Below the pieces are notes generated by a model, which had not been told where the DNA came from, ran no database searches, and worked only from the letters and a program-made list of their open reading frames with translations. 64,000 bases of DNA from Lagopus muta (taxonomy: Eukaryota): the NCBI RefSeq assembly GCF_023343835.1, contig NC_064433.1:177435076-177499075 (forward strand), in the 5' to 3' direction. Of this stretch, positions 1-64,000 are shown piece by piece (position 1 is the stretch's first letter; each line of letters starts with the position of its first letter). The position numbers were made by a program, and so were the translations under genes.

Positions 1-290
1 CAATGAAAGCTGTGTTGCAAGCACAAAAAAGGCTTTTACTTGAAAGAAGCCACTTGTTTGTTCCACATTAGGCTAAAGCGATCAGAGATGGCAAACACTG
101 CATAACTGTAACAGCAGAAATATACCAGGAACACGCTGATAGGCTCAAAAATTAGCAAGAGTTTCAAAAGAAAATACTGGTTCAGCCTTCTGGTAAGTAA
201 GAACTGGAGCATTAAAAGATGCAAGCAGGAATGGAGTTAGTATTAAATGCAAGCGCTCATCGTTCTCCTAGGTTTGGTTCTGCAGCTCAC

Positions 291-536
291 CAGAGTTCTC
301 CATCTGACACACATCCACTGCTTCTCGACCACCTCCTGCAGCAACGTAATTCCATGTTTCTGCTTCATCTTTTATCCTCCTCTCCTTGTGCACTTTGCTG
401 TCTTTCAATTTTAATTCTTCTATGAATTTGCATTCTAGTGAGGGTTCTTCTCTTTTGCAGTTATTCTCAGAGCATTCCTTTTTTTCTTCTGAAGCTACAT
501 TACACGTGTCAAGTGCACTTTTGATGTCCTTATAGC
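291..536 (-). CDS. MPHOSPH8: MPHOSPH8 exon 5.
   Basis: (S)YKDIKSALDTCNVASEEKKECSENNCKREEPSLECKFIEELKLKDSKVHKERRIKDEAETWNYVAAGGGREAVDVCQMENS(G). Acceptor ttctag|GC, donor G|GTGAGC. It aligns to human TLKEIRNAFDLFKLTPEEKNDVSENNRKREEIPLDFKTIDDHKTKENKQSLKERRNTRDETDTWAYIAAEGDQEVLDSVCQADENSDG. The phase is consistent with exon 4. Confidence 0.6.
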
Positions 537-1553
537 CTAGAACATTAAGACAGTTACCAAGAATGACTTCTTGAGCTACTAAAGGCTTTTACATAACAAA
601 GTTTAAATAAGTGACCAGAGTCCATTTAGTAAAGATCTATTCTCTCTTCCTAAGTTAATCACTGCTGAAGCACAGGAGCAAGCTTAACAAAAAGCCAAAA
701 TCAGGGACAGCTAGTTCACCTTCAGTGACCCTGGTAAGTCTGGGCTCTGACTGCTTTCTACTTAGTATTACCTTCTTAAGAAATTTAATTTAGAATTATG
801 CATTACCTCTTTGAAAAAATGTTTCAGTACCGGTGACAACCAAAGAACACGTGCTCTATACAGAGCAGGAATTAATCGTCTGCTGGCTACTCTTCTTGAG
901 CTGTTAGCATCTACCGTCCTTTAAGTGAAAGCTGTTTCTCTGCCAATAGCTTTTGAAGCACCACAGCTCTTCCTATGCCCATTCAGAATGCCAAAAGGAG
1001 AAAATTCACTCAGAATTTTCCTGAGATCAAGAGTGCTAACATTAATACCCCATCACACAACTAAGAACAGAAGTCCAATCCAGACCTTTCATGTTTCAAG
1101 TCACCTTGTGTTTTTTTAAGGTTTGTACAGTAACCCATTACAGTGGCTAAAGCAAGAGGCATAGTTTGCCTGAAGTGAACCTCTACCAGCTAACTCCAGA
1201 AATACAAAGTGTGTATTTATAATGATATCAAAATGCTTCTGGAAATAGACAATAGTTGGATGAATTCACCCCCAAAAGACCGTTGTCACCGGTGTGATAA
1301 AGCGACGTAGTTAACAATACTAAATGAAAAAGGGCAAAATTTTGACTTGTCTATAAAAACATTACAGGCATTACAAACTTTCATGCCTCAGGCAGCCTTC
1401 TCACAAAGCCATAAAAAAGCTGGCTTTCATTTCTTAAAAGAAACTGCTTTTCTAGCACGTATTAGAAATGCTGCTCTGTATCTGCCCTTATAGGAGTAAG
1501 AGGAGAATGCCTTGAAAGGTGCTCCCTTTCTCTTTTCAGCAATTAACACTTAC

Positions 1554-1650
1554 TTTTTAGGACCTTCTGTTCTTTTCTGCTCTTTTCTTCTTTTTCAGAC
1601 TCTTTTTTTACTGCTTTTTCTTTCATTTCAGTTTTCTTTATTTCTTTCTC
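1554..1650 (-). CDS. MPHOSPH8: MPHOSPH8 exon 4.
   Basis: EKEIKKTEMKEKAVKKESEKEEKSRKEQKVLK plus one base. It has a good polypyrimidine tract with acceptor ...cttaataacag|GAG and donor A|GTAAGT. It aligns to human ...DKETKRNESKEKYQKRHDSDKEEKGRKEPKGLK. The phase is consistent with exon 3. Confidence 0.6.
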
Positions 1651-3539
1651 CTGTTATTAAGAAAAAGGATCAAATGAGAGCGGTATGGAGAAAGTGGAAA
1701 ATAACACTACTGAAATCTTACAGACAACAGACTCACAGATGCAATCCTAAGAAAAGAATTAAATGGGTGAGACAGGAGCTGCTCTGGGAAAGCTGCTTCA
1801 CTACGAGGAAAAGATCTTCCAAATTAGGCAACTTCAGTTTGAGTTCTGTAGCATGCCAGCCACGTGAGGCACTCACACATATCAAAACCAGCCTACATTT
1901 ACAATTAGGCTGCGTTACCATTTCCTAAAATGACACATAGCAAAGACAAAACACACCAGGAAACCACTGTATTTAATATTCCGAGTCTGAAATGTTAGCT
2001 GGTGTGTCATTCACAGCCAAAGCAAGCAGAAACCAGAACCCTCCCTTAGAAGTGTTCTCTCTACTAAAACTGAGATACGACAGCTGAAATCCCAAGGTAC
2101 CGAATAAGGAGACTACAACTCAAAGAGGCACAAATAAACACTCAAGTCCTTAAGTGATCACAGAATCACTAATGCCACCATTTCTTAGAAAGGTAAAAAA
2201 CTAAATGAATTCAGTACATCATGAAGCCTTCCTTCTCTCCCCTCAAAACTCTGCCTTTGGGTGATAGACATCATTCCAGGCAGGTGCCCATAGTAGGAGC
2301 AAACAAGTGACAAGATTACCAGACACTGCTAAGCACAAGGGCTGTTCAAAAACGTGAGTTCTGTTCCAGATTTCCTGATGTTGATGAGATGCACAGTGTA
2401 CCTACACGTTTATTTTTAGAAGGTAAATCACAGGGAAGAAAGGCTTCATCATACAAAATGACTCCAAACAGAGAATACTGTACCACAGATTGACATGACA
2501 GTGTTCTGTAATCAGAGAAGAGTCAGGCAGCTGAAACAAAGGCCGTGCTTTACTTTCAAAAGAACGATATGCTGGGCCCACAACTTCATGACACACAGCA
2601 AACCCCAAAGCTGTGCCCTGAGCCCACACACGCAGAGTCCCACAGATGCTGTGGGCAGACGCAGGCACCACCACTTCAGCATGCAGGAGATGGATGGCAA
2701 AAAGCAGAATGCCTTCCAAGCTACACCTAGTGAGGGTACTGGCTGAAGAGCAGTAAGAAAATCAACCTTCCCCCTGCTGCTGATCTCTTCATATTTGTGG
2801 TGACGGGGTTTGTACACTGTTGGTAATGAACAGAATTCCGAGGATGTATGTGATTATCTGATGCTGCTCTCTTATGAATGCTATGGCCTCAAACTATGAG
2901 AAAATACTTGGAGTAATGAAGAGCCATGCCATTTCAGTTAGTTACAACTGCAAAGAAAATGAGCTAAATAGCTGTGTGAAACCAGCTATGCCCCACAGCT
3001 ATTGCTTAACCTTGTTTAGAAGAGCTTTCACCACTAAGCTCCCACAAAGAGTACTTTGTGTAGCTCAGCTCTGAGCTTACTCCATGCAGTATTGCTATTC
3101 TCTGTCCAAAACAAATCAACGTGCTTATGTTAAGGTGCCTACCCCATACAGACAACAGTCTCAGAGGACTGCAGCTGAACCTACAAAAAAAGACACTTGT
3201 CACCACAGAATTATGGCCTCAGAAGCAGTGGGACATAATCCAATAAGCACCAGGGTACCGTGGCTGCAGCCCAGTTACAAATCAGGAAGGAGTTTCTCCG
3301 GGCAGCCAATGATTCTTCTTTACAAACTACAAACTGTATCAGAATAGTCTAAAGAAGCTGAAAAATATATTCTCCAAAAGCAGATTTTCCTCATAAACAT
3401 TCTAGAAATACTCCTTTATTCTTCACATACACATTTACATTAAAAAAAAATATTTTATCTTCTTGTTTTCCTTAAAATATTATTGCATTAAATAGCAGAA
3501 ATTAAATAGTATATGAGTATTTGATCAGCTCATCTGTTA

Positions 3540-3762
3540 GAAGGGACACAGCGTTTGTAATTAATGTGTCACCAAGTTGGGCAACTCAGAATCTCCTGAA
3601 AGCAGCACAGGAATTCCAACAAGACAAGACAAGCTGGGCAATTATCTGGGAGATCACAGAAAGGCCTGGGTTGGAAGGACCTCAAGGATCATCAAGCTCC
3701 AGCTCTCTGCCGCAGGCAGGGCCACCAATTTGGGCTTAGGAGCAATTTCAGCATTCCAGTTC
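3540..3762 (-). mobile_element. CR1 LINE 3' fragment.
   Basis: Its reverse complement matches the CR1 3' end (ggtggccctgcctgcggcag...gatgatccttgaggtccttccaacccaggcc). Confidence 0.55.
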
Positions 3763-4261
3763 TTCTGAAGCCACTAACACACCCAGTCTAACCAAGAGGC
3801 TGGCTTCTGAGAGAAATCAAGTGCAGAAGTATACTCCACTGTGCAGTTGGATAGCTTCTAGAAGACTGAATGCCTTACTATGCAAGCAGACAAAAGCCAA
3901 ACTGAGGCAGCTGTCAAAGGTGGGAGAAACAAGAGGCTAAAAAGGACAACATGCATCTGTGGAACAGAAGTTTTCATTTTAAGTACATACACATAGCAAA
4001 GGAGAGATTCACATTTTCATACCTAAAAGACACTCCTCTGTCCCAAAGCACTCCCCTCTTTCTAGTGTTCGAAATCCAGTTTTTCCATCCTGCCTGTAGA
4101 CCCTGCAGTGCACCTTTCATTTGCTTTATCCATCCATTAACCTTCAGACTCTTATGTTTCCATTTGCCATCATAAACAGCAGCCTTTTCAGGCTCCTCTG
4201 CCTGAGCTGTGTTTGATCTGAACCCCCTCCCAGCGCTCCCCAATGCCCTCATACTGCTCAC

Positions 4262-5116
4262 CTCCTCTCCTGCCTCCATGGATTTGCGCCCTGTCTCCTC
4301 AGCGCTCACCTTTACAGCCTTCTGTGCCGACACGGGCACAGCTGACACTTTCTCCAACTCTGCAGCCACCACTTTCACTTTTTCTTGACTTTTCTGCTTT
4401 TTGAGCACGCTTTTCTTCTCCAAACCCGTATCTTTGATTTCCACTTTTCTACCCTCCTCTTTGTAATCTTCCATTTGCTGATTTTTCTTCTTCTTTCTTT
4501 TAGCCTTAACCTCCACACTATCATCTTCATTACTTGCTGATCCATCAAGCTGTCTGTCAGCAATGCAATCTTTTTCAGCAATTTCTTCTTCCAACCTCTC
4601 TTTTTCACACTTTACTTGTTGTTCCTCCTCTTTATTTTCAGAGCATAAGTGTGGATTTTCATTATCAACCTCCTGAAAAAGTGCATCGTCTGAAGTACTC
4701 GGCTCTGTGTCAAACTGAGCATCTCCTTGCTTCTCCTTCCGTGATTTTTTACTTTCTTTAGAATCTTCTTTAGTTTTTATTTTTACATCTTTAACTTCCC
4801 CCTTCTTTTTCTTTACTTCTTTAGTATCTTCTTTCCTTTGCTTCTTTGGATCCTTTGAATCTTCCTTTGTTTCTGAAGTCCTTTTTTTGGGTTTTGAATC
4901 CAACCCCAAAGTATCTGAGGAACGTTCACATTCTATCCTGGGTTTCTCTTTGACTTTTGCAGACTTTGACTTTTTCTTCTTCAGGTCATCCGCACTTCTA
5001 TCTTCTCCTTCTCTTGACTTTTTCTTTTTCTTCTTTGGTGAAACATCCTCTTTTGTTTTGCTTTGCCCATCACTATCAGATTCTGCTTCAAACACATCAT
5101 CATCTAGAGAAAATTT
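4262..5116 (-). CDS. MPHOSPH8: MPHOSPH8 exon 3: long Lys/Ser/Glu-rich low-complexity exon of 285 codons.
   Basis: KFSLDDDVFEAESDSDGQSKTKEDVSPKKKKKKSREGEDRSADDLKKKK...AELEKVSAVPVSAQKAVKVSAEETGRKSMEAGEE. Acceptor ttttag|AAATTT, donor GAGGAG|GTGAGC. Collinear with human MPP8 (RLSLNNDIFEANSDSDQQSETKEDTSPKKKKKK...SAAELEKLMPVSAQ). Confidence 0.8.
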
Positions 5117-5989
5117 CTAAAATGCAGGGGGGAAAAAAAAAGAAAATATTTACTTCCCCATTAAACTGTATTGCCTGAATGCCTGAATGCAAGCTGTACA
5201 AAAATGGCAGTGCTTGTGTGTGGGAAAAGAGAACTGTTTCTAAACATCCCTTGCAGCCAAAACACAAAGTTTGTAAGCACAATTCTAACTCACTTTCTTA
5301 CATTACATCACATTACTGGCTACCTGAAAGAGAATCAACATCTAAAGCAGCAAAGCAAACCAACTGGATGCCCAGCAGCTCGATTCCGGAGCCAAACTAA
5401 ATTTCAACTCTTTTACACCAAAACCAGTCGCCTTGATTTTGCAAAATTTACGTATGGATTTCTCACAAACAAGGCACCAGCTTTCAAAAATGGTTCTCAC
5501 ATAGGATTTCAAAAATGACTGAGCAGTTAAACAGAAACAAACAAGGGAAAATTGCCTTCCTTCAATAGAGTTGTCTCTATTTTTCTTATCTGATGAATTA
5601 CTGCTTTTTAACCATTAAGTTAATCTGCTTCAAGGAGGATGAAAAGAGCAGACCCAGCTTCAGTGCTAATAAGCTTGTGAGCAGGAAAAGGAGCTTGCTT
5701 TTGTTGTCAAAAAATAACTAAAATAACCATACATCTAATGAAGCCATATTTAATTTGCCATATTAAATGGATTCAGACTCTACGATTTTGAACTGTCAAT
5801 TTGAAAAAGCTCCTTAACCACACAACAGCAATAATAGCTGAGGTCTGCTGGAAGAAAAAGCTCTCAGATCAAAGATCATCCAAGTCATCACTTCCATATC
5901 CCAAACATCCTGCTCTCCCATGCCTGCCATTAGAAGAGCCCAGGCAGGCAGTTTGTCTTCTACCGAGGACGACAGCAGGAGAAACACAC

Positions 5990-6145
5990 CTGAAAGTCCT
6001 TTTTCAAAGGCTTTGGCTTGGTGTCCACCAGCTTTCTTCTGAATTCAAGCAGCACCTCTTCGCAGTCTTCCAGATGAACCTCTGGTTCCCAGGTATCGTC
6101 ATCAGAGGTATAGCCCTTCCACCGGACTTTGTACAGAATTACACC
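5990..6145 (-). CDS. MPHOSPH8: MPHOSPH8 exon 2: second half of the chromodomain.
   Basis: GVILYKVRWKGYTSDDDTWEPEVHLEDCEEVLLEFRRKLVDTKPKPLKKDFQ (52 codons, phase 0). Acceptor cttttcttacag|GG, donor CAG|GTGTGT. Near-identical to the human MPP8 chromodomain. Confidence 0.85.
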
Positions 6146-7699
6146 CTGTAAGAAAAGAACCAAACACTGAACACGTTACAGCACAGCATTACTCCGTCCA
6201 CTCAATTCCTGTGCCTTCTCTTTGGTGAAGAGGAGGATTTCAAACCTTAACATTTGTAATACAGCAGCACTGCTCACTCAGCTCTAAATTGGAATTTATA
6301 ATCTGTTAGATTCACAATCAATGCCACTTTTGATAAACTGCAGTACCAACAGTGAGAAATGAGAGCCCTTCAATGAGATCAAGTCAAATGTAGACTTAGA
6401 CAAAACTTGACTACTTGCATCTCTGAGTTACAAACTTATTGGTAAAAGACTGTAATTGCAGCCCTAGATCAATTCTTTCAACAGTATCTGAACTGACATT
6501 GTGGTTTCATCCTAAGTGATTTCACCAGAATAGAAGTCTGTTAGCATTAAGGGGAGAAAAAAGGAAAAAAAAGGAGAAAAAAAAAAAAGGTGTGGGTAAT
6601 GAGGAAAGCTTTTCACTAAGCTCTCTCTTGATTTTCTCCTAAATAAATTGAACGGCCCAAATCTCTCGTTCCTCAGGGTGAACTCCTTCCTCTGCTGAGA
6701 TGCCAGGCTTTAGGCCTGCTGGGAGCACAGCCTGTCACAGCCAGGCATCAGCGCTCTGTGCTTCTGCAGCAGCCTTCACTGAATGGCAGAGATGCACCTT
6801 ATGGAGTCAGTGTGGTCACCTTCCTGCACTGACCATGCAGCCTCGTTCAACAGAGGTATGACAGCAACCAGCAGCAAAGTTCAGAAGATAAATCTGTTTT
6901 CCATTAAACATGTAATAGTAAACACAAGGTAGCAAAACCATCCCAGAACTTATTTTCTAAAAAGAAATTATCCTAAGCATTAACCAGAATGCCTCTGGAG
7001 AAGCATAAGAACAGTGCCTTTGGCTCACTAAAGAACAGAGTCAACGTTCCCCAAATCCAGAGGGAATGTCACCCTGCGCCTTGCAGCTTGTCCCTTCAGT
7101 GGGATTTTAATGCAGTACAGCAGCTTTTGAAACACTTGGAATTTCTGTTGCTATTTTCCTGGATCAGGACAAGCCCATGTTCACCTGCCAGCAGGCAGCT
7201 CCCCAGCACAGACTCATCCCCAGAGCGCTGTCTCTCCCACCCGCCCATCACTGCCAGGCACAGAGTATCAGCAGGGGAACTGACAGGAGCTTCTCTATGC
7301 AGCACCCTTCGGTTCCCACAGCTGCAGATGTAGCATGGGAGACCAGAGCCTGTCTTGACAGCTCTGTGCATCTGTTCCAGCTTTGAAAAGCACCTGAAAA
7401 GCATCAGCCTAAAGCTGACTGCATATACTACACCCCATCAAATGCAGCATACAGCTTTTTCCATTCCTCTCAGGCTTGAATGATTACCTGCCATGCCCTG
7501 CATGTCTGTAGCACAGGAGCACAGTGAGAGCCCCATTTGAGAGCCACAGAAAGGGTCTGGAACAACCACAGCCCCCAGGACCAACACACGTTGGGCAAAT
7601 AAATGTCCTGTGTGGCCACGTGCTCCAACCTCGTGCACAGAGCAGCTGCCGCTGGCCTGCACACAGCACAGATTGATCTAGGAGATGTTACTCAGTATA

Positions 7700-8330
7700 T
7701 ACACAGAATCACAGAATTGTTTGAGTTGGAGGGGACCCTCTAAAGGCCATCTAAACCAATCCCCCTGCAACAAACAGGGACACCTACAGCTCCATCAGGC
7801 TGCTCAGAGCCCTGTCCAGCCCAACCCTGAACATCTCCATGGATCCACCACCTCTCCGGGCAATCTGTGCCAGCGCCTCACCACCCTTACTGTAGAAAAC
7901 TTCTTCCTTTTATCTAATCTACATCGCCTCTCTTTTAGTTTGAAACCATTTCCCCATGTCCTATCACTACAGACCCTGCTAAAGTCTGTCCTGTTTTTCA
8001 CTGTAGCTTCCCTTTAGATACTGAAAGGCTCCTCTCAGGTCACCCTGGAGACTTCTCCAGGCTGAACAGCCCCAGCTCTCAGCCCGTCCTCATAGGGGAG
8101 GTGTTCCATCCCATGGATCATTTTTTGGCCCTCCTCTGGATGTGCCCCAACAGGTCCATGTCTCTCCTGTACTGAGGACTCCACTTCTGGACGCAGTACT
8201 GCAGGCGAGGCCTCATCAGCACAGAGCAGAAGGGCAGGATCAGCTCCCTGAGATATTCTAGTGCTCTTCAGAACCGTGTGCAGAGCATGATCCTCCTCCC
8301 CAAGGAGACTGACTTTCAGATCCCGACTGT
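7700..8330 (-). mobile_element. CR1 LINE 3' fragment in MPHOSPH8 intron 1.
   Basis: It starts with the reverse complement of the CR1 tail (cacagaatcacagaat...ggaggggaccc). The ORF2 C-terminal remnant reads ...[16 protein letters not shown]. Confidence 0.7.
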
Positions 8331-8684
8331 AGGAAAAGTGTTTGTGCTTTCAGGACAGATTAACTACTGTGGCTAACACCTCATACCTCCACAGCATAAT
8401 ACTCTCAAGCCACAGACATTTCAGCCAAGATACAACTAAACCACTCCAGCATCATAAATACATAAAGCAATTCTTCATTTGAAGACTCCTCAACATCAAT
8501 GCCTTGTATCTCTGATGCTCCACGGGGAGCAGGTGGACTTCCACACCCATGTGATTCTGACTGAAGCCTAGCACCAAAATATGAGCTACTTAAAATAAAC
8601 AAGTAGAAAATACAAAAATTGTTTTAAAAAAGCTGTGTTTGTTATTTTTTTGATTGTGAAATTTAGAGAATTTCTGAAAGACAC

Positions 8685-9130
8685 TGAGGCTCTGGAGCAC
8701 GTCCAGAGAAGGGCAACAGAGCTGTGAGGGGTCTGGAGCACAAGGCTTATGGGGAGCAGCTGAGGGAACTGGGATTGTTTAGCCTGGAGAAGAGGAGGCT
8801 CAGGGGAGACCTTACTGCTCTCTGCAACTGCCTGAAAGGAGGCTGTGATGAGATGGGGGGAATCTCAGCCAATCGGCCACTGGATAACAGCGACAGCACC
8901 AGAGGGAATGGCATTAAGCTGCACCAGGGGAGGTTCGGGTTGTATGTTAGGAACTTCTCAGGAGTAGCAGTGAGGCAGTGGCACAGGCGGCCCAGGGAGG
9001 TGCTGTGCAGTCACCATCCCTGGAGGTGCTCCAGAAACGTGTGGATGCAGCACTGAGGGATGCGGTCGGCGGGCACGGGCTGACGGTTGGACAGGGTGAT
9101 CTTAGAGATCTTTGCCAACCTCAGTGATTC
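8685..9130 (+). mobile_element. CR1 LINE 3' fragment in MPHOSPH8 intron 1, about 500 bp from the CpG island.
   Basis: ORF2 C-terminus [27 protein letters not shown]...[11 protein letters not shown]. It ends in a CR1-like tail. Confidence 0.75.
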
Positions 9131-10384: not shown

Positions 10385-10390
10385 TTTATT
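10385..10390 (-). terminator. PARP4: PARP4 polyadenylation signal (AATAAA on the minus strand), about 265 nt after the stop codon.
   Basis: This is the only AATAAA or ATTAAA on the minus strand between the PARP4 stop (10651-10653) and the MPHOSPH8 CpG island. Confidence 0.5.
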
Positions 10391-10451
10391 AGGGCTTTGC
10401 TAAACGGTAGCCATCAAAACACGCTGCGTTACAGAGAAGGTAGGACTTTGG

Positions 10452-54402: not shown

Positions 54403-55189
54403 TGTTTTTAATATATATTTCCAGCACTGTAGCTTCCCACTCTTAATGCAGAACTCAGCTTCAGGAAAGCTGTGCAGGTGATATATTCATAACTGGCTTA
54501 AGTGCAGGAAAGGTGATGGGAAGTTTGGAAAGAGCCACAGCTGATGTGAGATTTAGCAGTTGGCAGCTGAAAGAGCTGCCCTGGTTTTATGCAGCCGGGA
54601 GCTCGGTCCTGTACCAACGTGCAAAGAGGAGCAAAACCCGGCTCTAGCTGGCAATGTGTCACCAGGCTTTGGAGTGAGATTCTCCACTGTTTGCTGGAGC
54701 TCTGAGGAAACTGTTTTGCTCAGTAAGAGAATTCCTAAAGAGCAAAATGTCAAAAACTCTCTGGTGATGGTGACAGAACGTGAGGGAATGGCACAGAGCT
54801 GTGTTGGGGTGAGGGGCAGGTCAGGTTGGGAGTCTGGAAAAGGTTTTTCAACATAGATTAATGGAGTATCCTGAATTGAGAGGGGTCCGTAAGGATCACT
54901 GAGCCTAACTCCTGGATCTGCACAGGAACAGCCTGCCCAGGGCAGTGGGCACAGCTCTGAGCTGCCAGAGCTCAGGGAGCGTTTGGACAGTGCTTCCAGA
55001 CATTGGGACTGGCTTTTGGGTGGTCCTCTGTGGAGCCAGGGGTTGGACTCAGTGATCCTTATGGGCCCCTTCCCATTGGGAAGGATGGAAAGAAGCCCAG
55101 GTGGTTCAATGACTCCGTAGGCTTTCTGCCACTTATCCTTCCACTCCACCCTTACTGCAGCTATTTAAAATTAAAAGGGCAGAGGCAGC

Positions 55190-55900
55190 TACAAGGAAAG
55201 CACGCTGAAAGCGCACAGCCCCGCCCGCCCAGCAAAGGCACGGCTAGCGCAGATTGCGGGTTCGTTCCGCGGTCGCCTCCTCACTGCCGCCCCCACAGGG
55301 CGGGAAGGCGGGGAGCGGCCCCTCCCCCAGCAACGGGGCGGGGCAGGCATCACCGCCTTCGTGCGCCTGCCCCCGCCCCTCAGAGGCCTAGGCAGGGCTG
55401 GAGGGTTTGCAGTGTCAACCTATTAACGGCATCCTCGCCGCTGAGCATTTTGGGAGCTGTAGTCGAGCGCAGAGAGATCGCTACGGGGCTGCAGGAGGCG
55501 GGCGGCGGCTGGGGACTACAAATCCCGGCGTGCCCCGCGCCGCGCGGCGTCCAGCCTGTGGCGGCGGGAGGCTGTGCTATGGCGGCGCGTTTGTAACTGC
55601 GAGCGGCGGGAGGTCGCGGCGCTGAGTGGCGGCGCTGCTGCGGCGGCGGCCTCGGCTTCGGCCATTTGGAATATTACGCTCTGGGGAAGCTTTGAGCGTT
55701 TCGAAATCTGCTCGTACGGAGTTCTGTAGGAGTTCCGGAAGGGTTCCTGTGGGGATCCCGAAGTGCCGCCGGGCGGTGATGGTGGTGGGAAGAGGAGTGA
55801 GAAGCGAACGCGCAGCTGTTTGTGGAGTTACCGCGGGAAGGTTAAGTGCGAGTTGAAATATGCACAGTAAACCGATCGTGTTCACTTGGGCATCTCTGCG
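55190..55900. promoter_or_regulatory. CENPJ: CpG island at the CENPJ 5' end. It is probably a bidirectional promoter that also serves PARP4.
   Basis: CpG density is very high, with several GC boxes (CCCCGCCC at about 55222 and GGGGCGGGG at about 55336). It lies immediately upstream of the CENPJ first coding exon. No other CpG island exists near the PARP4 5' end. Confidence 0.6.
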
Positions 55901-56151
55901 GCGTTGCATTAGTACGAGGATTTGTGGCTTGACTGCTTCTTATAAACACGATCGGCTGGTTTTAAGAGTGACTTCCCGATGCTGGGAGTCTCTTCCTGTA
56001 GATTTTTTTCTTTTATCTGCTTAATTTCTCGGAGCTAAAAACAAGTGAGCATCCACCCCTGATACTTGTGACTGCACCTTTTACTCCCCTGGCGCTACAC
56101 TATGTTATGTTAATGCTGCATCAGCAATTGCGTTGGAATGTAATTTACAGG

Positions 56152-56541
56152 ATGCCGACTGTTGAAGAGCTGAGTAGTGAACAAAACTTCATTGCACACT
56201 GGATGTCCAGTAATTCCCGTGCTGGTGTCTTATTAGATCCTCATTTTACTGGATTAAAAATCACCACAGAAAGTCTGTTACCTGGACCTGAAAGCATCAC
56301 GGCTTTCCCCGGTGAAGTGCAGAATCTCTTAGACAGCTGTTCTGTAAGTGAGGACTCCTTGAGTGAAGAGCAATTGCTTGAGTCTGGCAGCTCCTGTGCA
56401 CTTCAGCAAAATAGCACTGAAATGTCTTTTCCAGCAACAGCATATAATGTAGGAAGCTCTAAAGCAGACTTCGGCCACAGTGAAAAGGATGCTCAGAATA
56501 AATCTGATTGCAATGATCCTCTCTTACAAAAGCTTGAACAG
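56152..56541 (+). CDS. CENPJ: CENPJ first coding exon (ATG at 56152, two nt after the acceptor tttacag|G at 56150/56151).
   Basis: MPTVEELSSEQNFIAHWMSSNSRAGVLLDPHFTGLKITTESLLPGPESITAFPGEV...NDPLLQKLEQ (130 codons), then GTAATA. It matches the human CENPJ N-terminus ([32 protein letters not shown]...DPLFKKLEQ). Confidence 0.8.
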
Positions 56542-56609
56542 GTAATAAATTTTAAAAATTCTAGAATTTCTTGATATTCATAAATTAAGGTATATTTTGT
56601 TCCTGTGCA

Positions 56610-57010
56610 TCCATGGAATGGAACACCTCTCCTATGAGAACAGGCTGAGAGAGCTGGGGCTGTTCAGCCTGGAGAAGAGAAGGCTTTCAGTATCTAAAGA
56701 GGAGCTACAGGAAAGAAGGGGACAGATTCTTTAGTGGGGTATGTGAAATTAGAACAAGGAGAAATGGCTTCAAGCTTAAAGAGGGGAGATTTAGGTTGGA
56801 TTTAAGGAAAAAGGCTTTAACAGTGGGGGTGGTGAGGCACTGGCACAGGTTGCCCAGAGATGTTGTTGATGCCCCATCCCTGGAGACTTTCAGGGTAAGG
56901 CTGGATCAGGCCCTGGGCAATCTGATCGAGCTGTGCATGTCTCTGTTTGTTGCAGGGGAGCTGGACAGATAAAAGAAACTTTAAAGGGCCTTTCCAACTC
57001 TAAGTAGATT
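56610..57010 (+). mobile_element. CR1 3' fragment in a CENPJ intron.
   Basis: ...[20 protein letters not shown]...KLKEGRFRLDLRKKALTVGVVRHWHRLPRDVVDAPSLETFRVRLDQALGNLIEL. Confidence 0.75.
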
Positions 57011-57468
57011 CTAGTATTCTATAATTTTTCATACCTGAAAGTATCTGTAGAACATAAGCTTAAAGAGCAAGCCCTGAGTCAGTTACGTGTCAGTTGCGTA
57101 AAGATTAGTGTCCTCCTCATAACATACTGTTATTGAGAGCCTCGTTGGTTTTCATAGGCACAGATTTCAGTTCAAAATGAAATTATGTTTAGCGCCAGCA
57201 TATTTGCTCTTAGAATCTTCTTACCTCAAAAGGTGAACATTTCCCAAATTGCAGAAATGAGAGTTCTGTTATCTACTATTTGTGGATTGGTCGATTAAAA
57301 ACTAGTGGCTTGGAGTGCACTAGAAACAGCATGAATTTCATTCATCAAAGCACTTTGTATGCAATGTGTCATGTTACAGTTAGATAATGGGATGTCTTTA
57401 AAACTTGTTGTCTTGATGATGCTTATGTTTTGGTGCATTCTAAGTATACTTACCCCACAGTACATTGA

Positions 57469-57491
57469 TTTTTTTTTTTTTTTTTTTTTTT
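57469..57491. repeat. Poly(T) homopolymer of 23 nt that forms the polypyrimidine tract of the CENPJ exon 57507 acceptor.
   Basis: Uninterrupted T run, followed by aaatttcttaaaaag|CTG. Confidence 0.9.
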
Positions 57492-57506
57492 AAATTTCTT
57501 AAAAAG

Positions 57507-57630
57507 CTGAAGGAATTGCAACAACAGAAACAGGAACAGCTAAAGAAACAACAGATGGAGCAACTTCAAAGGCTAATGGAAGAACAGCAGAAGTTACTTA
57601 GCATGGTATCTGGTCAGACGGCAGTTCTTG
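57507..57630 (+). CDS. CENPJ: CENPJ exon.
   Basis: [41 protein letters not shown](G). Acceptor (T)23aaatttcttaaaaag|CTG, donor G|GTAAGT. It matches human [37 protein letters not shown]. Confidence 0.75.
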
Positions 57631-57649
57631 GTAAGTTGAGAAATAAAGC

Positions 57650-57875
57650 ATAGGATCACAGAATCATAGAATGGCCTGGGTTGAAAAGGATCACAATGAT
57701 CATCGGGTTTCAACCCCCTGCTATGTGCAGGGCTGCCAACCACCAGACCAGGCTGCCCAGAGCCACATCCAGCCTGGCCTTGAATGCCTCCAGAGATGGG
57801 GCATCCACAGCCTCCTTGGGCAACCTGTTCCAGTGCATCACCACCCTCTGAGTGGAAAAAATGTGTACTTTATTA
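57650..57875 (-). mobile_element. CR1 3' fragment in a CENPJ intron.
   Basis: Reverse-complement CR1 tail (ggatcacagaatcatagaatggcctgggttgaaaaggatcacaatgatcatc...). Confidence 0.7.
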
Positions 57876-58900
57876 AACTGAAGAATGTGATCTATTGTTC
57901 TTGTTTAAGTTAGAAAGTATATTCAGTGTTCATTTTAAGACTACTTGATTAGTCAAAGATAAATGCATCATTTTAATGACTGCTGTGTGGTACTGCTAAA
58001 GGAATGCTATCCTTTTGCCAACTTTCATTGTAATTAATGATGGGAGCCCTTGTTTTGAAGAAAATATCGTAAATATAAAAGACAAAATAGGCAGTTGCAT
58101 TTCTTTCAATACTTCTGATTGCTTTAAGCTATCACTGTATCCAAATGAGGTGGTGCCTCCTTGTTTGTGCTCACAGTACATGTTTTCCCATGTGATGATC
58201 TCAATGAGACTGGGGAACTCATCTGTACTGAGAAACAAACATCTGTAACCTGGATCAGTGTTCCAGTCCAATTTAGCTTGTGCACAGGGAGAGGACAGTC
58301 CTGGACTGGAAGAAGCCCCCAGAGTTGAGAGAGGGGCATCTTCTCTTGCAGGTAGTATCAGACCCACCTGATTTAAATGATTATATTTCTTTTACGTAGC
58401 CTATCTGAGAAACTGAAGTTAGGCTTTGAACAAAAACTAAATTGCCTAATGATTTTTTCTGAGTTGGGAACATGAGGATGGAGGCTGGCTCTTGCCCTCC
58501 TGTGTATGTTTATTTTGTTCCTGTGAAACACTGGTTTGTTTGAAGGCTGTACTCTAATGGCTGAAAGTAAAAAGCTAAGCTAAGACCTGGGCATTCATTG
58601 GGCTTGACAAGTTTTTTTGTTTGTTTGTTTGTTACAAATCAGTCATCTGAGTAACAGAATCACAAGGACAACAAAGCTCATGCTCTGAGTAATTGGTCTC
58701 CACATACACAGAACAGTGAAATTATAACAAAAGTTAATGCAGAATGCATCTCATCTTTGGACAACGGTTGTTCAGTACTGTCTGCCTGTAAAAAGCAAGG
58801 CCCCTGAAAATGCAGAACTGCTTGAAAGGCAGTGGAAGTGACAACTATATTGGTTAGGCATTTGGAGAAAAATAATTGGGAGTGTGTGTTCCCTTCCCAT

Positions 58901-58921
58901 CCCCCCCCCCCCCCCCCCCCC
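58901..58921. repeat. Poly(C) homopolymer of 21 nt in a CENPJ intron.
   Basis: cccttcccat(c)21aaagtt. Confidence 0.9.
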
Positions 58922-59960
58922 AAAGTTACTGAGCATAACTCACTGCTTGTAGTGATGCTTGTATACAAATTTTGGTTTCCTTTGCTCAGTATGGTCAGCT
59001 CAGCACCCTCAGTGTTCCTGTGAGTGTTGTTAAAAGCAGCAGGAGGAAAAATCAAGTTCTTCCATCAGCATGATGTGTTTGTCTGTTCTAGTAGGGAAAA
59101 AAATGGCTACTGCTAAAACTTATGTGTGATAAAGACTGGGAAAATGGTAAAATAATGACAGATCCTTGATGGCTGCATTATTTGGTAAGTTAGAATGAAC
59201 TGAAACCGTATTTTCAAGTAGCAATTAGAAAATAGTCCATACGGGGATATAGAATGTCTCCAGACCAACTGTGTTGTGAGGCTAAATAACTGAATTGGAA
59301 TTAGGAATCAAGATGGATTGGCAAAGAGATGCTATGGCATAGTCATAATGTCCTTAGAGTTGGAAGGCTGATGAAGAATTGTTTATACACCAGAAGAAAC
59401 GCACCAGAATTCTTCACCTTTTCCTGTTTCTTAGCTGTACCACTGGCACCGTGTTACCATTTATGCTGTTATGACTGGAATAGCATTTTTGGTTTTAAAT
59501 TTCATAAGGAGTTTGTAAATCTGTAGAGGTTTCAGAGAAAAGAAATGGGAGTGAGTTACAAGCATGAAGTATGATGACAAGCTTTTAATCTTGGTCTAAG
59601 GTGATGTGAAAGGATGAATTGATCTTGATTTTTAAGTATAGCAGACATCCAAGCTTCTGTTATTTTACCTTTAAGCCATAAGTTAGCAAAGATGATGAAT
59701 CAGAATGGAGTGCCAAGGTGTGTGTCTGGGGGAGAAAACTTATACGTGGTTGGATATTGCTTTCAAAGGAGTGCTCAAATTCAAACAAGAGTTAATTTGG
59801 GAAAATCATAGGACTTCTTTTGTGTGGGAATTCAGACTATGTGACCATGAAGCTGTTTTAATCTGGTCTGAATGCCACTTAAATGTAAGCTGAGCTGACT
59901 GTTTGTTTGCATGCTTTTGGGAGGAAAAAAACCCAAATTTGTATTCTGTTGATTTCATAG

Positions 59961-60093
59961 GAAAAAGCATGAGGTGTCCAGAACAAAAGATGGAAAAATT
60001 GATGGAGACTGAAGATCCACCCGTGGATCCTTTCAGTGCGGAACTCCCTGAGAACAGAGGAAAACAGTTATGGGTGACTAATGCAGAGGAAAG
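59961..60093 (+). CDS. CENPJ: CENPJ exon.
   Basis: (G)KSMRCPEQKMEKLMETEDPPVDPFSAELPENRGKQLWVTNAEE(R). Acceptor gatttcatag|GA, donor AG|GTAATT. Its phase links the flanking exons exactly. Confidence 0.65.
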
Positions 60094-61508
60094 GTAATTC
60101 AGAATGTGATTTGGTAAAAAGTGTAAGTAATTTATACTGCAAGTTTGAATGAATTCTGAATCCCAATTCAGATATTCTCAATTTGTATAGCTTTCTTAAG
60201 CAGGGATTACGTTTCACTAGTACAATGGAGAGCAATAGTAGGAGAGGCTCTGGCTTGAGATTGTGACAGATGTGCTGTGCTGGCTGAAGAGGTGTGTGCA
60301 GCGTGGGGTGATGATAGTGTAGAAGCACATTCTGGTATAGGCTTAGTAGATTAGCAGTCACAATTACTGCACTCAATCTGATTCATTACAATCTCCTCTC
60401 CACTGTTACACAGCAAAAGTAGTGATGTTGAGGAAGAGTGTAAGGCCACAACTTTTTAGTTTGTTACCAGGAGTTATGTTTGTTTAAGCGTCTATGTGTG
60501 GCTAAGAAATAACAATGCTTGTGGGAGAAGCCTTCTCATGGATGTTAGAAGCTTTTTGTTGTTGCTGTTGTTGATGGAATAAAAGTAGTGGTTGGCACTG
60601 TTTTGGAGCTCTGCCTTGTCTGCCTTGCCTGTCATAACATGAAATACTTGTTCCAGGCAGTACTGGGTTGACCCCAGGCAGCCACTTGGTCACCCTGCCT
60701 CAGAATTCAATGGAGGTGAATTAGAAGAAGTAAAATGACATTTGTGGGTTGAGATAAAGACACTTTATCTTCACAACAAGTGAAGAAAAGAGGGGAAGAG
60801 ACCCCAGCATTAAGAAGGTGGCCATCTCCCACAACCAGACCGATGCACAGTTGGTCCTGTGTAGTTTTAGAAAACCAAGTCTGCAGTTCTCATTGCTGAA
60901 CATGATGTTGTGTGGCATGGAACTCTTGGTCACTTTGGATCAACTCTTCTGGCTCTGACCTCTCTCTCTTGCCCATCCCCAGCCTATTTGATGGGGTGAA
61001 CAGAGTGAGCAGCATGAGAAACCAGAGAAAACCTGGATGCTCTGCAAGAAGTGTTCAACAACAGCGCAAAAACGTTGGATGTTACCATCACTGTTTTGGT
61101 CACAAATCCAAAGCAGCACCATATGGACTGCTGTAAAGAAAGTTTACTCCATCCTAGCCAGACCCAGAATGCAGGCTGATCTCTGTAGGATTTCTGTGAA
61201 CCAATGTGAAGGACATACCATAGAAATTATCAGTATGACTACAATCTGAGTGCGAGTCTGATGGCTCGGGCAGAAGAATGGCTGGTCGCAATGGCAATTT
61301 TATTTAGCTGTGTATGAATAATTTTGTCAAAAGATAATCAACTATTACTACAGTGCATTTTTCAGATTAGCTTTGCCACTCAGTGACTAAAATTCTTCAT
61401 AATTGTCATCGTTTAGGTAATTGTATCCCAGGTCTTTGATTAGCAGTGATGTTAAATGCAATTAAATTATACAGAAATGTTAATTTTTTATTTTTTTAAT
61501 TACTACAG

Positions 61509-61614
61509 ACCTATTAAAGCTGCGATTCAGGAGAAGAAACAGACCTTTGAGGAATTTGTGGAAGAACAGATGAGAATAGAAGAGCAGCGTCTGAAGCAAA
61601 AACAGAAGTTACAG
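61509..61614 (+). CDS. CENPJ: CENPJ exon.
   Basis: (R)[35 protein letters not shown]. Acceptor tactacag|A, donor CAG|GTTTTC. It matches human [34 protein letters not shown]. Confidence 0.75.
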
Positions 61615-61954
61615 GTTTTCTATTCTTTCTGACTTGTTTTTTAAATATTATACCGTGGTGTGATGGGTGTTTTAAGAACTTAGACAGCAGGTTCTGGCAT
61701 CAAAAGCTAATGCTGCAATATTCACATCTTAATAATTCATCTTCGAAATAAAACAATAAGTCCTAACTATTTTGTTTAAGATGCTTTCAGAAATCCAGTA
61801 GAAGTAAATGCGCTTTATAAATTCCTACTAATATGTGGGGTTTATTTGGAAAACAAGCAAAAAAAACCAAGCAAATTCAAAAACCCAGCAACTTAAAACT
61901 GCACGAGGGATTTAATGTTGTGTGTGTGTGTTAATTTTCCTTATCCCCTTTCAG

Positions 61955-63560
61955 GAGACATATGGATCAGCCATTCAAAAACCTGTGATCAAACGACCCT
62001 TCCTAAAAAGAGGAGAAGGCCTAACAAGGTTTACTAATGCCAGATCTAAGATAGCAAAGTTTCGGGAAAACATGCTGAAGTCTCCACAGAGGGCTTCAGA
62101 TGACAGAAATGTGAGAGTGGACAGATCACAAATGCAAAAGAAAAGTCTGCCTTCTGGCAAAGAACTGGTTTCTGAGAGCGCTCTTACACCATGTAAAAAC
62201 AATAACCAGCCTGACAAAGCCAAACGTCCTCTTCAGAAGACCCTGGTACTCAGAAATCACAATGGAAAAAATTCCTTGCCACTAGAAACAAGAATGCAAC
62301 CGGGAAAAAATCTTAATGGACAGATTAAGGTTTCTTTTTCGCCAGAAGTCAACAATAAAATAGAAAATAAAGAGAATGTAGTGGAATTTACTAAGTCTAG
62401 CACTGGCAGCAAAATCAGAAACAAACTACCTTACACAGAAAAGCCTCCATTATCTTGTGAGATGGCTGATGCCTTTTCTAATTCTAACTGTTCTGTGACT
62501 CACTCTGTAAAGGATTCAGAACTGTCTTTTGAAGTTTCATTTCAGAATAAGTTGGAAAACTGGGAAAAAGAAAAGGAAAAAGAAAACCTGGAATTAGATG
62601 AATTTTTGTTTCTAGAACAGGCTGCAGATGAAATATCTTTCTCAAGTAATTCTTCATTTGTGCAAAGGATCTTAGATCGAGATCAGCAAACTTCACAAGG
62701 ACGCAGAATGTCCTCTACCCCTATCAAGGCAAAACAGCAGCAAGTAAAGGAATTTGCAGTTAAACTCATTAATAAGAAAAAGGCAGAATGTGTGGCTGTG
62801 GGAAATAAAAATGATAAAGCAGTTAATCGTGCGATGTCAAATTCAGAAACAGCTTCTAGACTAAAGGATCCACTGAATAAAGCAGATAGTGTAACGTTTT
62901 CAGGTTCTTTCATGACAGCAGCTCCTGCTTTAAAAAGTACTCAGTGGATTGTGAATGAAGACAAAGATGAAGAAAATGGTAATAGTACTACAGATTCTGA
63001 GCAAGAATTTGAGACCACTTTAAAATATGAAAATGAAGATGTTAAGACATCCTTTATGAGCCATAGAGAAAGCGATCCAGAATTGTTAGATTATGGGAGT
63101 TCTGCTACAGATATCAGCAAAGAAAGCAAAAATGGAAGTGCCAACCTTGACTTGTCAGACAAAGATGCACAGTCAAACCAAAAGGTTGGAAAAGCTTCAG
63201 ACCACCAAAGAAGCATGTCTAGTGTAAACAGGAATAAGTTTGAGTTTGATGATGAGAGAACATGGAGTGATCTTGATGAAAATTATGTTCATGATGGTTT
63301 ACCTGAAAAATACACTACAACGCCCTCACAGACTGACTTTTTCAGTAAGAATGATACACCTTTCCCAGATAGAGCATTAAAGAGAAAAGTTGCCTCAAAG
63401 AGGGGGGAAGAACTGTCTAAACAGCCTGCAGTGGACAGCGATTCAAATGGACCTCCATCAGACCTGATGGTGAAACTGTTTCCCTCACTGAGACCAAAAC
63501 AGAAGACAGGTTGTCATCCAGAGCATGAAATCAAATCAAATGTGGAACAGGAGTCAGGAG
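61955..63560 (+). CDS. CENPJ: CENPJ large central exon (about 535 codons). The gene continues past the window end.
   Basis: ETYGSAIQKPVIKRPFLKRGEGLTRFTNARSKIAKF...SFQNKLENWEKEKEKENLELDEFLFLEQAADEISFSSNSSFVQRILDRDQQ...KFEFDDERTWSDLDEN...LKRKVASKRGEELSK...LMVKLFPSLRPKQK. Acceptor cccctttcag|GAG, donor G|GTGAGA. Long blocks are identical to human CENPJ (PFLKRGEGLARFTNAKSK; KEKENLELDEFLFLEQAADEISFSSNSSFV; MDFDDERTW; KRGEDLSK; MMKFFPSLKPK). Confidence 0.7.
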
Positions 63561-64000
63561 GTGAGAGAACAGCAACTGGTAGGAAATGTTGAAGAATACA
63601 TGTTTTACAAGTCTTTCCTTCTAAGGCTTACGCTGCAGCTTGATGCTACACCAAAAGGTACAGACTTCTACTGTAGGCACCCTTCATCTCTTCTGGTGTC
63701 TGGTGCCACATGCAGTCATTGCACAGCCTGCAGAATGATAAGTTCAGTGAAACCCTTCATTTATTTCACCCTGAAGTCTAGTTTTTTGTCTCATCACCTC
63801 ATTCAACTAACTTAATCCAAAGGCGCTTGACCACTGTTTCAAACTCAAGCAAAGAGGCAAAAGTGTGCTGAAAATGAAGCAGTGCCTCCCTTTCCAGTGA
63901 GTGCATCTACACCGCATTTGGGTAGTGCCATGCACTCCTAGGTTACATTGTTCCTGTAGTAAAACTGGATGCGTCAGCAATGTCTGTTTTCTCTCTGCAG

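Follow-up and report, generated by a model that had tools for sequence, protein, structure and literature searches.

Gene content of the locus

The window, by which we mean the whole 64-kb stretch of Lagopus muta DNA analysed here, carries three genes side by side, CENPJ on the plus strand and PARP4 and MPHOSPH8 on the minus strand, and takes in the 5′ two-thirds of CENPJ, all of PARP4, and the 5′ half of MPHOSPH8 (Table 1). A first-pass annotation, made from the letters only, had proposed these identities, strands, and approximate coordinates, and splice models, Pfam, PDB, and database matches bear them out: the best matches of the exon translations are the named orthologues PARP4, MPHOSPH8, and CENPJ, by wide margins. 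The three genes, which encode CPAP, the vault PARP, and the HUSH subunit MPP8, are unrelated to one another; CENPJ and PARP4 are transcribed divergently, and PARP4 runs in tandem into MPHOSPH8. The further claim that nothing intervenes also holds, in that the orthologous locus of the New World quail Cyrtonyx is annotated with the same three only, both spacers align to that locus, with a diverged segment (10,510-10,018) and one CR1-like insertion as the exceptions, and Rfam and tRNA searches of the window gave no matches; an unannotated long noncoding RNA could nonetheless lie there.

TABLE 1 Features of the 64-kb window
Feature	Position	Strand	Basis or remark
MPHOSPH8, 5′ part of coding region	1-9,892	-	tblastn of turtle model P0207, splice junctions, Pfam, PDB
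MPHOSPH8 exon	536-291	-	
MPHOSPH8 exon	1,650-1,554	-	
MPHOSPH8 exon	5,116-4,262	-	large, lysine/glutamate-rich
MPHOSPH8 exon	6,145-5,990	-	remainder of chromodomain
MPHOSPH8 exon	9,892-9,632	-	ATG at 9,892, acidic tract, chromodomain start
CpG island, MPHOSPH8 exon 1 and promoter	8,981-10,440		GC 0.67, CpG observed/expected 1.0
Candidate MPHOSPH8 core promoter elements	9,948-9,989	-	motif positions
PARP4 poly(A) signal AATAAA	10,385-10,390	-	261 nt past stop
PARP4, complete coding region	10,651-52,336	-	splice-aware model with Cyrtonyx PARP4 (P0129) as guide
Insertion relative to Cyrtonyx	54,546-55,090		CR1-like repeat fragments in opposite orientations; not a gene
CpG island, single one between PARP4 and CENPJ	55,081-55,940		GC 0.62, CpG observed/expected 0.96
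ACTACAGCTCCC motif, facing PARP4	55,452-55,463	-	motif scan
ACTACAAATCCC motif, facing CENPJ	55,515-55,526	+	52 bp from partner
CENPJ, 5′ part of coding region	56,152-63,562	+	guided models (Merops, Balearica CENPJ) and tblastn (Bambusicola, Colinus CENPJ)
CENPJ ATG exon	56,152-56,541	+	acceptor aatttacag just before
CENPJ exon	~57,507-57,634	+	
CENPJ exon	~58,577-58,799	+	boundaries uncertain
CENPJ exon	~59,961-60,093	+	
CENPJ exon	~61,509-61,614	+	
CENPJ large exon	61,955-63,562	+	

The splice-aware model of PARP4 has 34 coding exons and an uninterrupted frame of 1,611 codons plus TGA (ATG at 52,336-52,334, stop at 10,653-10,651), with AG at all acceptors and GT at all donors except one GC. 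Pfam places BRCT (1-78), PARP (402-579), VIT (639-749), and VWA (893-1042) domains on the spliced product, and the C-terminal exons, which hold the major-vault-protein interaction region, align to the human C-terminus. Joined end to end in a preliminary version, the exon translations score 1,475 bits with the solved chain of full-length human PARP4 in the PDB and at most 53 bits with PARP1 and PARP2, and the named database matches are all PARP4, bar a few unnamed or misnamed entries. CENPJ contains the tubulin-binding PN2-3 region (Pfam Tubulin-bind_CPAP, which passes the curated cutoff with E=2.2e-6); its best PDB matches are human CENPJ (5itz, E=4e-9), and the 120 database matches listed are all avian CENPJ or unnamed sequences. 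Its coiled-coil and G-box (TCP10_C) exons fall past the right edge of the window, and the neighbouring gene in Cyrtonyx (1,260 aa) carries Tcp10_C. MPHOSPH8 likewise continues past the left edge, where its ankyrin-repeat exons lie, and the orthologous Cyrtonyx gene (858 aa) carries both Chromo and Ank domains. The chromodomain is assembled across a splice junction whose donor, at 9,631, reads GTGAGC and whose acceptor, preceding 6,145, is of the polypyrimidine-CAG type; once spliced, it is recognized by Pfam (E=7.5e-15) and scores 116 bits against human MPHOSPH8 in the PDB, compared to 61 bits for CDYL, the next chromodomain protein. CENPJ, PARP4, and MPHOSPH8 in the window are thus true orthologues of the genes so named.

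Two CpG island junctions

The CpG scan found only two islands in the window, one per gene junction. The 860-bp island upstream of CENPJ is the sole one in the 3.8-kb CENPJ-PARP4 spacer, and Cyrtonyx has an island at the equivalent position (7,121-7,840 of its locus) whose core aligns at 75%. The only part of this spacer that fails to align to Cyrtonyx is a 545-bp insertion, presumably of the CR1 (chicken repeat 1) family, whose open reading frames on both strands encode mirror-image 'LSDPYGPL' peptides. Splice acceptors lie directly 5′ of both the CENPJ and the PARP4 ATG across amniotes. In the window, the PARP4 ATG stands 7 nt into an exon that starts at 52,343 behind the acceptor ttctctgttttaacag, which is kept in quail, skink, an opossum relative, lemur, and monkeys, so that exon 1 must be noncoding and lie farther upstream. 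By the same reasoning, the acceptor that opens the CENPJ ATG exon at ~56,150 places a noncoding exon 1 upstream, most likely, as judged from the sequence, within the CpG island, and the first-pass placement of the CENPJ 5′ end at about 55.9 kb is reasonable. In galliforms, the noncoding first exons of CENPJ and PARP4 would then both sit in one shared 0.9-kb CpG island.

The conserved core of this island holds the only two matches to ACTACANNTCCC in the 64 kb (0.04 expected by chance), which point away from each other. The PARP4-facing copy, ACTACAGCTCCC, is identical in Cyrtonyx, and the CENPJ-facing copy, ACTACAAATCCC, has one mismatch there. The same 12-mer as ACTACAAATCCC faces CENPJ in the skink spacer, Microcebus has ACTACACTTCCC facing CENPJ, and ACTACAACTCCC occurs at the equivalent position, directed away from CENPJ, in the CENPJ islands of Microcebus and Nasalis. 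We take ACTACAnnTCCC to be a ZNF143/Staf-type motif enriched in bidirectional promoters. The presence of two diverging ACTACAnnTCCC motifs in one CpG island suggests a shared bidirectional CENPJ/PARP4 promoter. Such a promoter would share with the CpG island bidirectional promoters that carry ACTACAnnTCCC the single island between divergent genes with noncoding first exons, and likewise the two outward-pointing motifs. Primates have one island at CENPJ and a separate one upstream of PARP4, with no sequence in common within the flanks compared, indicating that a shared promoter is not universal.

At the other junction, the MPHOSPH8 island extends as far as the PARP4 poly(A) signal, and an island is found at the equivalent position in Cyrtonyx (52,461-53,280). 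A GC box (9,989-9,983), TGACGTCA (9,976-9,969), and an inverted CCAAT (ATTGG, 9,952-9,948) lie 56 to 97 bp upstream of the MPHOSPH8 ATG in a segment that aligns to Cyrtonyx at 75% (10,018-9,624); by general knowledge of CpG island promoters, these are candidate MPHOSPH8 promoter elements. From the PARP4 stop to the MPHOSPH8 ATG there is no AATAAA or ATTAAA other than this poly(A) signal. It stands ~400 bp upstream of the GC box, so that PARP4 termination and MPHOSPH8 initiation are crowded together, and PARP4 read-through toward MPHOSPH8 is plausible. In Cyrtonyx, an AATAAA or ATTAAA, which the scan did not distinguish, lies 141 nt after the PARP4 stop and ~265 bp before the GC box.

The block in other amniotes

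The Cyrtonyx locus reads CENPJ(-)/PARP4(+)/Chromo+Ank gene(+). Of the 64-kb window, 49.9 kb align collinearly to this locus at 83% identity. Chicken chromosome 1 (180-181 Mb) is listed as '...PSPC1, MIR6641, MPHOSPH8, PARP4, CENPJ, RNF17...' (PMC10976558), that is, with the same three consecutive genes in the same order, in a paper that gives a gene list without strands or distances. Chicken and the source of the window are distinct galliform species; in PARP4, the window is closest to the prairie-chicken Tympanuchus (97.6% identity, compared to 89.5% for Gallus and 85.6% for Cyrtonyx). The same succession is found in ruminants, where goat chromosome 12 is listed as 'ATP12A, RNF17, CENPJ, PARP4, MPHOSPH8, PSPC1, ZMYM5...' (PMC11874128) and all these block genes fall inside 580 kb of sheep OAR10 (PMC11192971). 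In the resulting ruminant block, ATP12A-RNF17-CENPJ-PARP4-MPHOSPH8-PSPC1-ZMYM5-ZMYM2, the three genes and their surroundings keep the same order (PMC11874128, PMC11192971), with the evidence for the mammalian CENPJ-PARP4 junction consisting only of adjacent names in the goat and sheep lists; ATP12A, present in this block, is absent from the chicken list.

Individual junctions recur in other genomes. CENPJ lies head-to-head with PARP4 in a skink, with 7.1 kb between the ATGs, and MPHOSPH8 follows PARP4 at 4.8 kb in the polar bear and 9.9 kb in the ring-tailed lemur. In a turtle (model P0207), PARP4 exons run into MPHOSPH8 exons within one fused gene model. The non-avian loci were viewed with 10-kb flanks, and none of them displays the three genes together with strands; the marsupial and caecilian PARP4 loci have no neighbour within 10 kb. 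The upstream PARP4 neighbour in Emys is a 1,295-aa product with no domain record.

Gene order and relative orientation are thus kept in independent lineages, including outgroups to birds. What differs is size: the coding exons of PARP4 spread over 42 kb in both the window and quail, compared to 66 to 231 kb in the skink, turtle, mammals, and caecilian sampled, and in mammals both genes and spacers exceed those of the window several-fold in length. The small size of the block is a general avian shortening of introns and spacers. We consider it very probable that the window corresponds, as its galliform orthologue, to the chicken chromosome 1 segment PSPC1-MPHOSPH8-PARP4-CENPJ-RNF17, and that this segment is an ancestral amniote microsynteny block from which the human 13q12 separation is derived.

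Separation in primates and alternative readings

For human hg38 we assume approximate positions of 19.4 Mb for TPTE2, 19.6 Mb for MPHOSPH8, and 24.4-24.5 Mb for PARP4, followed by ATP12A, RNF17, CENPJ (24.9 Mb), and PABPC3 (25.1 Mb). On this assumption, MPHOSPH8 and PARP4 lie ~4.8 Mb apart, and only ~0.4 Mb, which includes ATP12A and RNF17, separates PARP4 from CENPJ. The first-pass statement that the human orthologues are all several megabases apart would therefore be right for the former pair and wrong for the latter. The same genes presumably remain on the same chromosome arm, with the RNF17-CENPJ pair kept, and both junctions of the window presumably broken close to TPTE2-derived duplications. 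This wide separation is very probably derived, through rearrangements within primates, in a region of recurrent TPTE2-containing segmental duplications; the TPTE2 duplication block at human 13q12.1 is recurrently rearranged (PMC7419210).

The primates examined, in which RNF17 is tail-to-tail with CENPJ, agree with such a history. In colobus, a catarrhine, PARP4 is followed by an intronless PABPC-type, PABPC3-like retrogene. Unique similarity between lemur and monkey ends 0.2 to 1 kb past the PARP4 stop, just after the 3′ untranslated region, while the upstream flank is collinear for ~8 kb. As read from these alignments, the PARP4-MPHOSPH8 junction is broken in the catarrhine monkey and the lemur keeps the ancestral state. 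In the platyrrhine Cebus, an HNRNPA3-like retrocopy lies 9.4 kb downstream of PARP4, which speaks for neither state. The upstream flanks of CENPJ and PARP4 do not overlap in lemurs or colobines, so that in each pair the ATGs are more than 20 kb apart or the genes are not adjacent. One could speculate that the diverging ACTACAnnTCCC pair is an ancient, amniote-wide bidirectional core with PARP4 as the original partner; that PARP4 later acquired its own CpG island in mammals or primates; and that this uncoupling let duplication-driven anthropoid inversions split the pair harmlessly, leaving the outward motif orphaned at the catarrhine CENPJ promoter. We regard this extended scenario as doubtful.

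Could selection hold the three genes together, through a shared promoter, enhancers, or a chromatin domain, such that separation is harmful? The order has been retained in many lineages, over roughly 300 million years; CENPJ and PARP4 have between them a single CpG island whose diverging motif pair is conserved; the PARP4 poly(A) signal is ~400 bp from the MPHOSPH8 promoter; and a gene predictor fused these two genes in turtle. However, PARP4 and MPHOSPH8 are split in the catarrhine monkey, and presumably in human as well, without loss of either gene, CENPJ and PARP4 have separate islands in primates, and spacer length has been free to grow, ranging from 0.5 kb up to ~10 kb. Where spacers are very short, few breaks would be harmless, and neutral retention is then enough to explain the order. 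Given the separate primate islands and at least one junction broken in a monkey, obligatory coupling is unlikely, and we give selective linkage of the whole block a low probability. The first-pass suggestion that the tight packing reflects shared regulatory space keeps some weak support at the CENPJ-PARP4 junction only, with its one island and diverging motifs; the packing itself is generic avian compaction.

An origin of the arrangement by rearrangement in the bird or sauropsid lineage is far less probable still. Its avian version was one of the options raised in the first-pass annotation, where only the distance between the human genes spoke for it, and the block is indeed especially tight in both galliforms, but the same consecutive genes in goat and sheep, PARP4 followed by MPHOSPH8 in polar bear and lemur, and the individual junctions in skink and turtle refute it. 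The other option, an ancestral amniote arrangement or a primate rearrangement breakpoint, is upheld by the junctions in reptiles and mammals and by the different neighbour in the catarrhine. That the adjacency is an assembly misjoin, or that one of the genes is a paralogue or processed pseudogene, has a negligible chance of being true: we found no point in its favour, each of the three genes is intact across multiple exons, with an open frame and canonical splicing signals, an independent assembly of a species in another galliform family is collinear with the window over all 64 kb, and the best matches are the named orthologues by wide margins.

Returning to the ancestral amniote block, the CENPJ-PARP4-MPHOSPH8 order is an ordinary, already annotated arrangement of land vertebrates, neither avian-specific nor new, and any bird or ruminant genome that has been annotated shows it as a standard segment of conserved synteny. 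Its importance beyond correct annotation is slight, and it suggests no unusual biology. The block can serve to anchor orthology calls and to mark primate 13q12 as derived and rich in duplications, and promoter sharing and transcriptional interference could reasonably be studied, on a small scale, at its two tight junctions.

Gene models and the spacers between them

As a lead only, a human PARP4 sequence served to find the exons and aligned with about 30 collinear ones between 52,336 and 10,660; the final model rests on database proteins. With the Cyrtonyx (New World quail) protein as guide, a splice-aware model resolves PARP4 into 34 coding exons with a frame open over 1,611 codons, AG at all acceptors and GT at all donors except one. 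This exception, the GC donor of exon 6 at 47087, reflects either a true GC-AG intron or a minor modelling error. Compared with solved structures, the concatenated exon translations reach 1,475 bits for the full-length human PARP4 chain and ≤53 bits for PARP1 and PARP2. A large-database search with these translations retrieved PARP4 of birds, turtles, lizards, amphibians and mammals, and the BRCT, PARP, VIT and VWA domains stand in the expected order (Pfam). The finished model is 97.6% identical to PARP4 of Tympanuchus (prairie chicken), 89.5% to that of Gallus and 85.6% to that of Cyrtonyx. Protein matches assign the window to Galliformes, probably to a grouse- or turkey-like phasianid. Compared with Cyrtonyx, most PARP4 exons are conserved at 80 to 100%, and two only weakly, the large exon at 15613-16212 (52%) and the one at 17215-17367 (63%); this indicates a fast-evolving, probably disordered region ahead of the C-terminal vault-interaction part. 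An exhaustive representative search with the 287-aa variable exon brought up no usable guide protein: its matches were fragments no longer than an exon and P0126, a bacterial repeat protein unrelated to PARP4. The 3'UTR carries a 29-bp tandem duplication (96% match) at 10462-10519, past the stop codon and ahead of the poly(A) signal.

Exons 1 and 2 of MPHOSPH8 together encode a chromodomain. Its best match is human MPHOSPH8 with 116 bits, and the next chromodomain protein follows at 61 bits. In exon 1, codons for a long alanine/glycine tract precede those for a glutamate/aspartate tract, and the exon includes a GC-rich 39-bp imperfect tandem repeat (9757-9842); several overlapping ORFs on both strands around it represent composition artefacts. 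For CENPJ, a human sequence that served as search bait is 100% identical to database entry P0248. The ORF at 61,922-63,592 (556 aa) holds the CPAP tubulin-binding Pfam domain, scoring past the curated cut-off, and matches human CENPJ chains (PDB). Each of the 120 protein-database matches listed for CENPJ is either an avian CENPJ or a sequence with no name, and the window exon is 87 to 90% identical to the best of them, Bambusicola included. Later CENPJ exons reach 63,562, with the placement of exons 3-5 approximate, and the gene exits the window at its right edge. The splice models and best matches bear out the identities, strands and coordinates assigned to the three genes by the first-pass annotation.

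Its statement that no genes intervene holds as well. Neither Rfam (gathering thresholds) nor a tRNA scan gave a match in the window, and the annotated 62-kb Cyrtonyx locus lists the same three genes only. Collinearity with that locus extends over the whole window, with 49.9 kb in alignment at 83% identity, and the CENPJ-PARP4 spacer is alignable all along save for a 545-bp insertion in the window. Two oppositely oriented repeat fragments, probably 3' ends of CR1 elements, make up this insertion, and ORFs on both strands give mirror-image "...LSDPYGPL..." peptides. Hidden spacer genes were considered and rejected, the ORFs at 54,553-55,596 falling in this quail-absent, CR1-like insertion and in the GC-rich island. 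Long non-coding RNAs may lie between the three genes.

Two GC-rich peaks stand out from the otherwise AT-rich vertebrate DNA of the window (GC about 0.35-0.43). ORF fragments scattered through it share a 15-letter peptide that we take to mark chicken-repeat-1 (CR1) LINE ends; the fragments occupy introns and the stretch upstream of MPHOSPH8 exon 1, and include a reverse-transcriptase-like ORF at 49.5-50.0 kb. Pfam gave no match for two of these CR1-type ORFs. The coding span of PARP4 is 42 kb in both galliforms compared to 66-231 kb in other sampled tetrapods, and we therefore regard the compactness of the block as unremarkable.

Features of the window and of the compared loci (window coordinates unless a locus is named)
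Feature	Position	Strand or direction	Remarks
MPHOSPH8 further exons	5,116-4,262; 1,650-1,554; 536-291	-	gene leaves window at left edge
MPHOSPH8 exon 2	6,145-5,990	-	spliced to exon 1; the two joined read ...FEVEKILDMKTEGGVILYKVRWKGYTSDDDTWEPE...
MPHOSPH8 exon 1	ATG 9,892 to 9,632	-	GTGAGC donor
Candidate elements just upstream of MPHOSPH8 ATG	GC box 9,989-9,983; TGACGTCA 9,976-9,969; inverted CCAAT 9,952-9,948
PARP4 poly(A) signal AATAAA	10,390-10,385	-	sole poly(A) signal past PARP4 stop
PARP4 stop TGA	10,653-10,651	-
CpG islands of the window	8,981-10,440; 55,081-55,940		one per junction
CR1-type LINE fragments (LFSLEKRRL peptide)	about 8775 (+); 18458-18874 (-); 29695 (-); 46057 (-); 49500-50045 (-); 56660 (+)
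(GTGATTCT)x6.4 microsatellite	29504-29555		inside PARP4 intron
Insertion vs Cyrtonyx	54546-55090		545 bp, directly beside CpG island
ACTACANNTCCC copies	55,452-55,463; 55,515-55,526	toward PARP4; toward CENPJ	52 bp apart, outward-pointing
CENPJ ATG exon	56,152-56,541	+	reads MPTVEELSSEQNFIAHWMS...
Diverging ACTACAnnTCCC pair, CENPJ-side island	window 55452-55526; Cyrtonyx L001 7490-7570; mouse lemur Microcebus L008 3079-3152	diverging
Single ACTACAnnTCCC copy	skink L006 about 6100; proboscis monkey Nasalis L007 about 882
Separate primate CpG islands	L002 (lemur PARP4 locus) 4301-5220; L003 (Piliocolobus PARP4 locus) 1941-2740; L007 (Nasalis CENPJ locus) 581-1380; L008 (Microcebus CENPJ locus) 2801-3780

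Junctions and a putative bidirectional promoter

Exactly two CpG islands occur in the window, one at each junction. Between PARP4 and MPHOSPH8, 758 bp separate the stop from the next ATG, and the positions of the poly(A) signal and of the promoter elements leave about 400 bp from the end of PARP4 to the likely MPHOSPH8 promoter; the junction is similar in Cyrtonyx, where the ATG follows the stop after 496 bp and the GC box follows the poly(A) signal after about 265 bp.

At the other junction, the ATGs of PARP4 and CENPJ lie 3.8 kb apart. Each opens an exon directly behind a splice acceptor. The PARP4 acceptor is kept in quail, skink, a marsupial and primates, the CENPJ acceptor in quail, skink and primates. 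This position of the ATGs implies non-coding first exons upstream in both genes. The sole CpG island available to these first exons is the one of 860 bp, whose core contains the only two matches to ACTACANNTCCC in the window (0.04 expected by chance); Cyrtonyx keeps both copies, one exact and the other with a single mismatch. We take ACTACANNTCCC to be a ZNF143/Staf-type motif, a type reported to be enriched in bidirectional promoters. From these sequence features we infer that PARP4 and CENPJ share a putative bidirectional promoter in the 860-bp island.

The diverging motif pair, written as ACTACAnnTCCC, is found in the CENPJ-side island of both galliforms and of the mouse lemur, and a single copy in skink and proboscis monkey; the skink spacer carries the exact CENPJ-facing 12-mer. 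The motif was absent from the primate and marsupial PARP4-upstream flanks, the separate primate PARP4 CpG islands included. Whereas the galliforms have one island for both genes, PARP4 and CENPJ in primates each have their own, 5-9 kb upstream of the ATG exon, with no sequence common to both in the lemurs and colobines compared. Judged by motif content, this suggests that CENPJ retained the core of an old divergent promoter.

Conservation of the block and its break in primates

The consecutive order on chicken chromosome 1 (180-181 Mb) is PSPC1, MIR6641, MPHOSPH8, PARP4, CENPJ, RNF17 (PMC10976558). Goat chromosome 12 reads ATP12A, RNF17, CENPJ, PARP4, MPHOSPH8, PSPC1, ZMYM5, ZMYM2 (PMC11874128), and all genes of this list lie within 580 kb in sheep (PMC11192971). 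CENPJ and PARP4 are head-to-head in the skink locus, and in Emys, a 1,295-aa gene, which has no domain record, occupies the CENPJ-corresponding position beside PARP4. At the other junction, a 2,276-aa protein of the turtle Platysternon megacephalum (P0207) joins PARP4 to Chromo and ankyrin exons in one gene model, its residues mapping to PARP4 exons (12168-12034) and MPHOSPH8 exons (6145-271) of the window; this fusion offers useful sequence evidence for same-strand PARP4/MPHOSPH8 adjacency. The database name of P0207, "FAM98A," is wrong, the entry being a mis-named and mis-merged PARP4 + MPHOSPH8 read-through model. Downstream MPHOSPH8 follows PARP4 after 4.8 kb in polar bear and 9.9 kb in ring-tailed lemur; the PARP4 loci of Dromiciops and Microcaecilia show no neighbor within 10 kb and so say nothing about the block. 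The order and junctions shared by chicken, goat, sheep, skink, turtle, bear and lemur indicate that the block is ancestral for amniotes.

In the Old World monkey Piliocolobus, an intact intronless PABPC-type ORF (L003 108351-109489), presumably PABPC3 (a PABPC3-like retrocopy), lies 8.9 kb downstream of PARP4. Unique flank similarity between lemur and monkey stops 0.2-1 kb past the PARP4 stop, with upstream flanks collinear over about 8 kb, a pattern that a breakpoint just past the PARP4 3'UTR would give. In Cebus, the downstream neighbor is an HNRNPA3-like retrocopy with a glycine-rich C-terminus on the opposite strand (L004 104329-104892), which carries no information on the MPHOSPH8 link. 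In Nasalis and Microcebus, the tail-to-tail neighbor of CENPJ encodes a Tudor domain, as would fit RNF17, and CENPJ-upstream and PARP4-upstream flanks (≤10 kb each) of colobines and lemurs do not overlap.

On the human map, MPHOSPH8 probably lies at about 19.6 Mb and PARP4 at about 24.4-24.5 Mb, followed by ATP12A and RNF17 and then, at about 24.9 Mb, by CENPJ; if this is right, the PARP4-CENPJ gap is about 0.4 Mb, not the "several Mb" of the first-pass annotation. Human TPTE2 copies presumably lie near the breaks. Published gene lists around PARP4, CENPJ or MPHOSPH8 were found for livestock and none for human. Human 13q12.1 contains a 269-kb TPTE2-containing duplication block that is recurrently rearranged among apes (PMC7419210).

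Among the origins initially proposed, an ancestral amniote arrangement from which the primate state derives is favored by the order in birds, reptiles and mammals and by the downstream neighbor in Piliocolobus; an avian-specific one is contradicted by goat, sheep, bear and lemur. The suggestion of shared regulatory space survives at best for the CENPJ/PARP4 promoter in birds, as obligatory coupling is disfavored by the separate primate promoter islands and by the PARP4-MPHOSPH8 link broken in a monkey. The block is already annotated and is no avian novelty: the arrangement represents known, ordinary conserved synteny.
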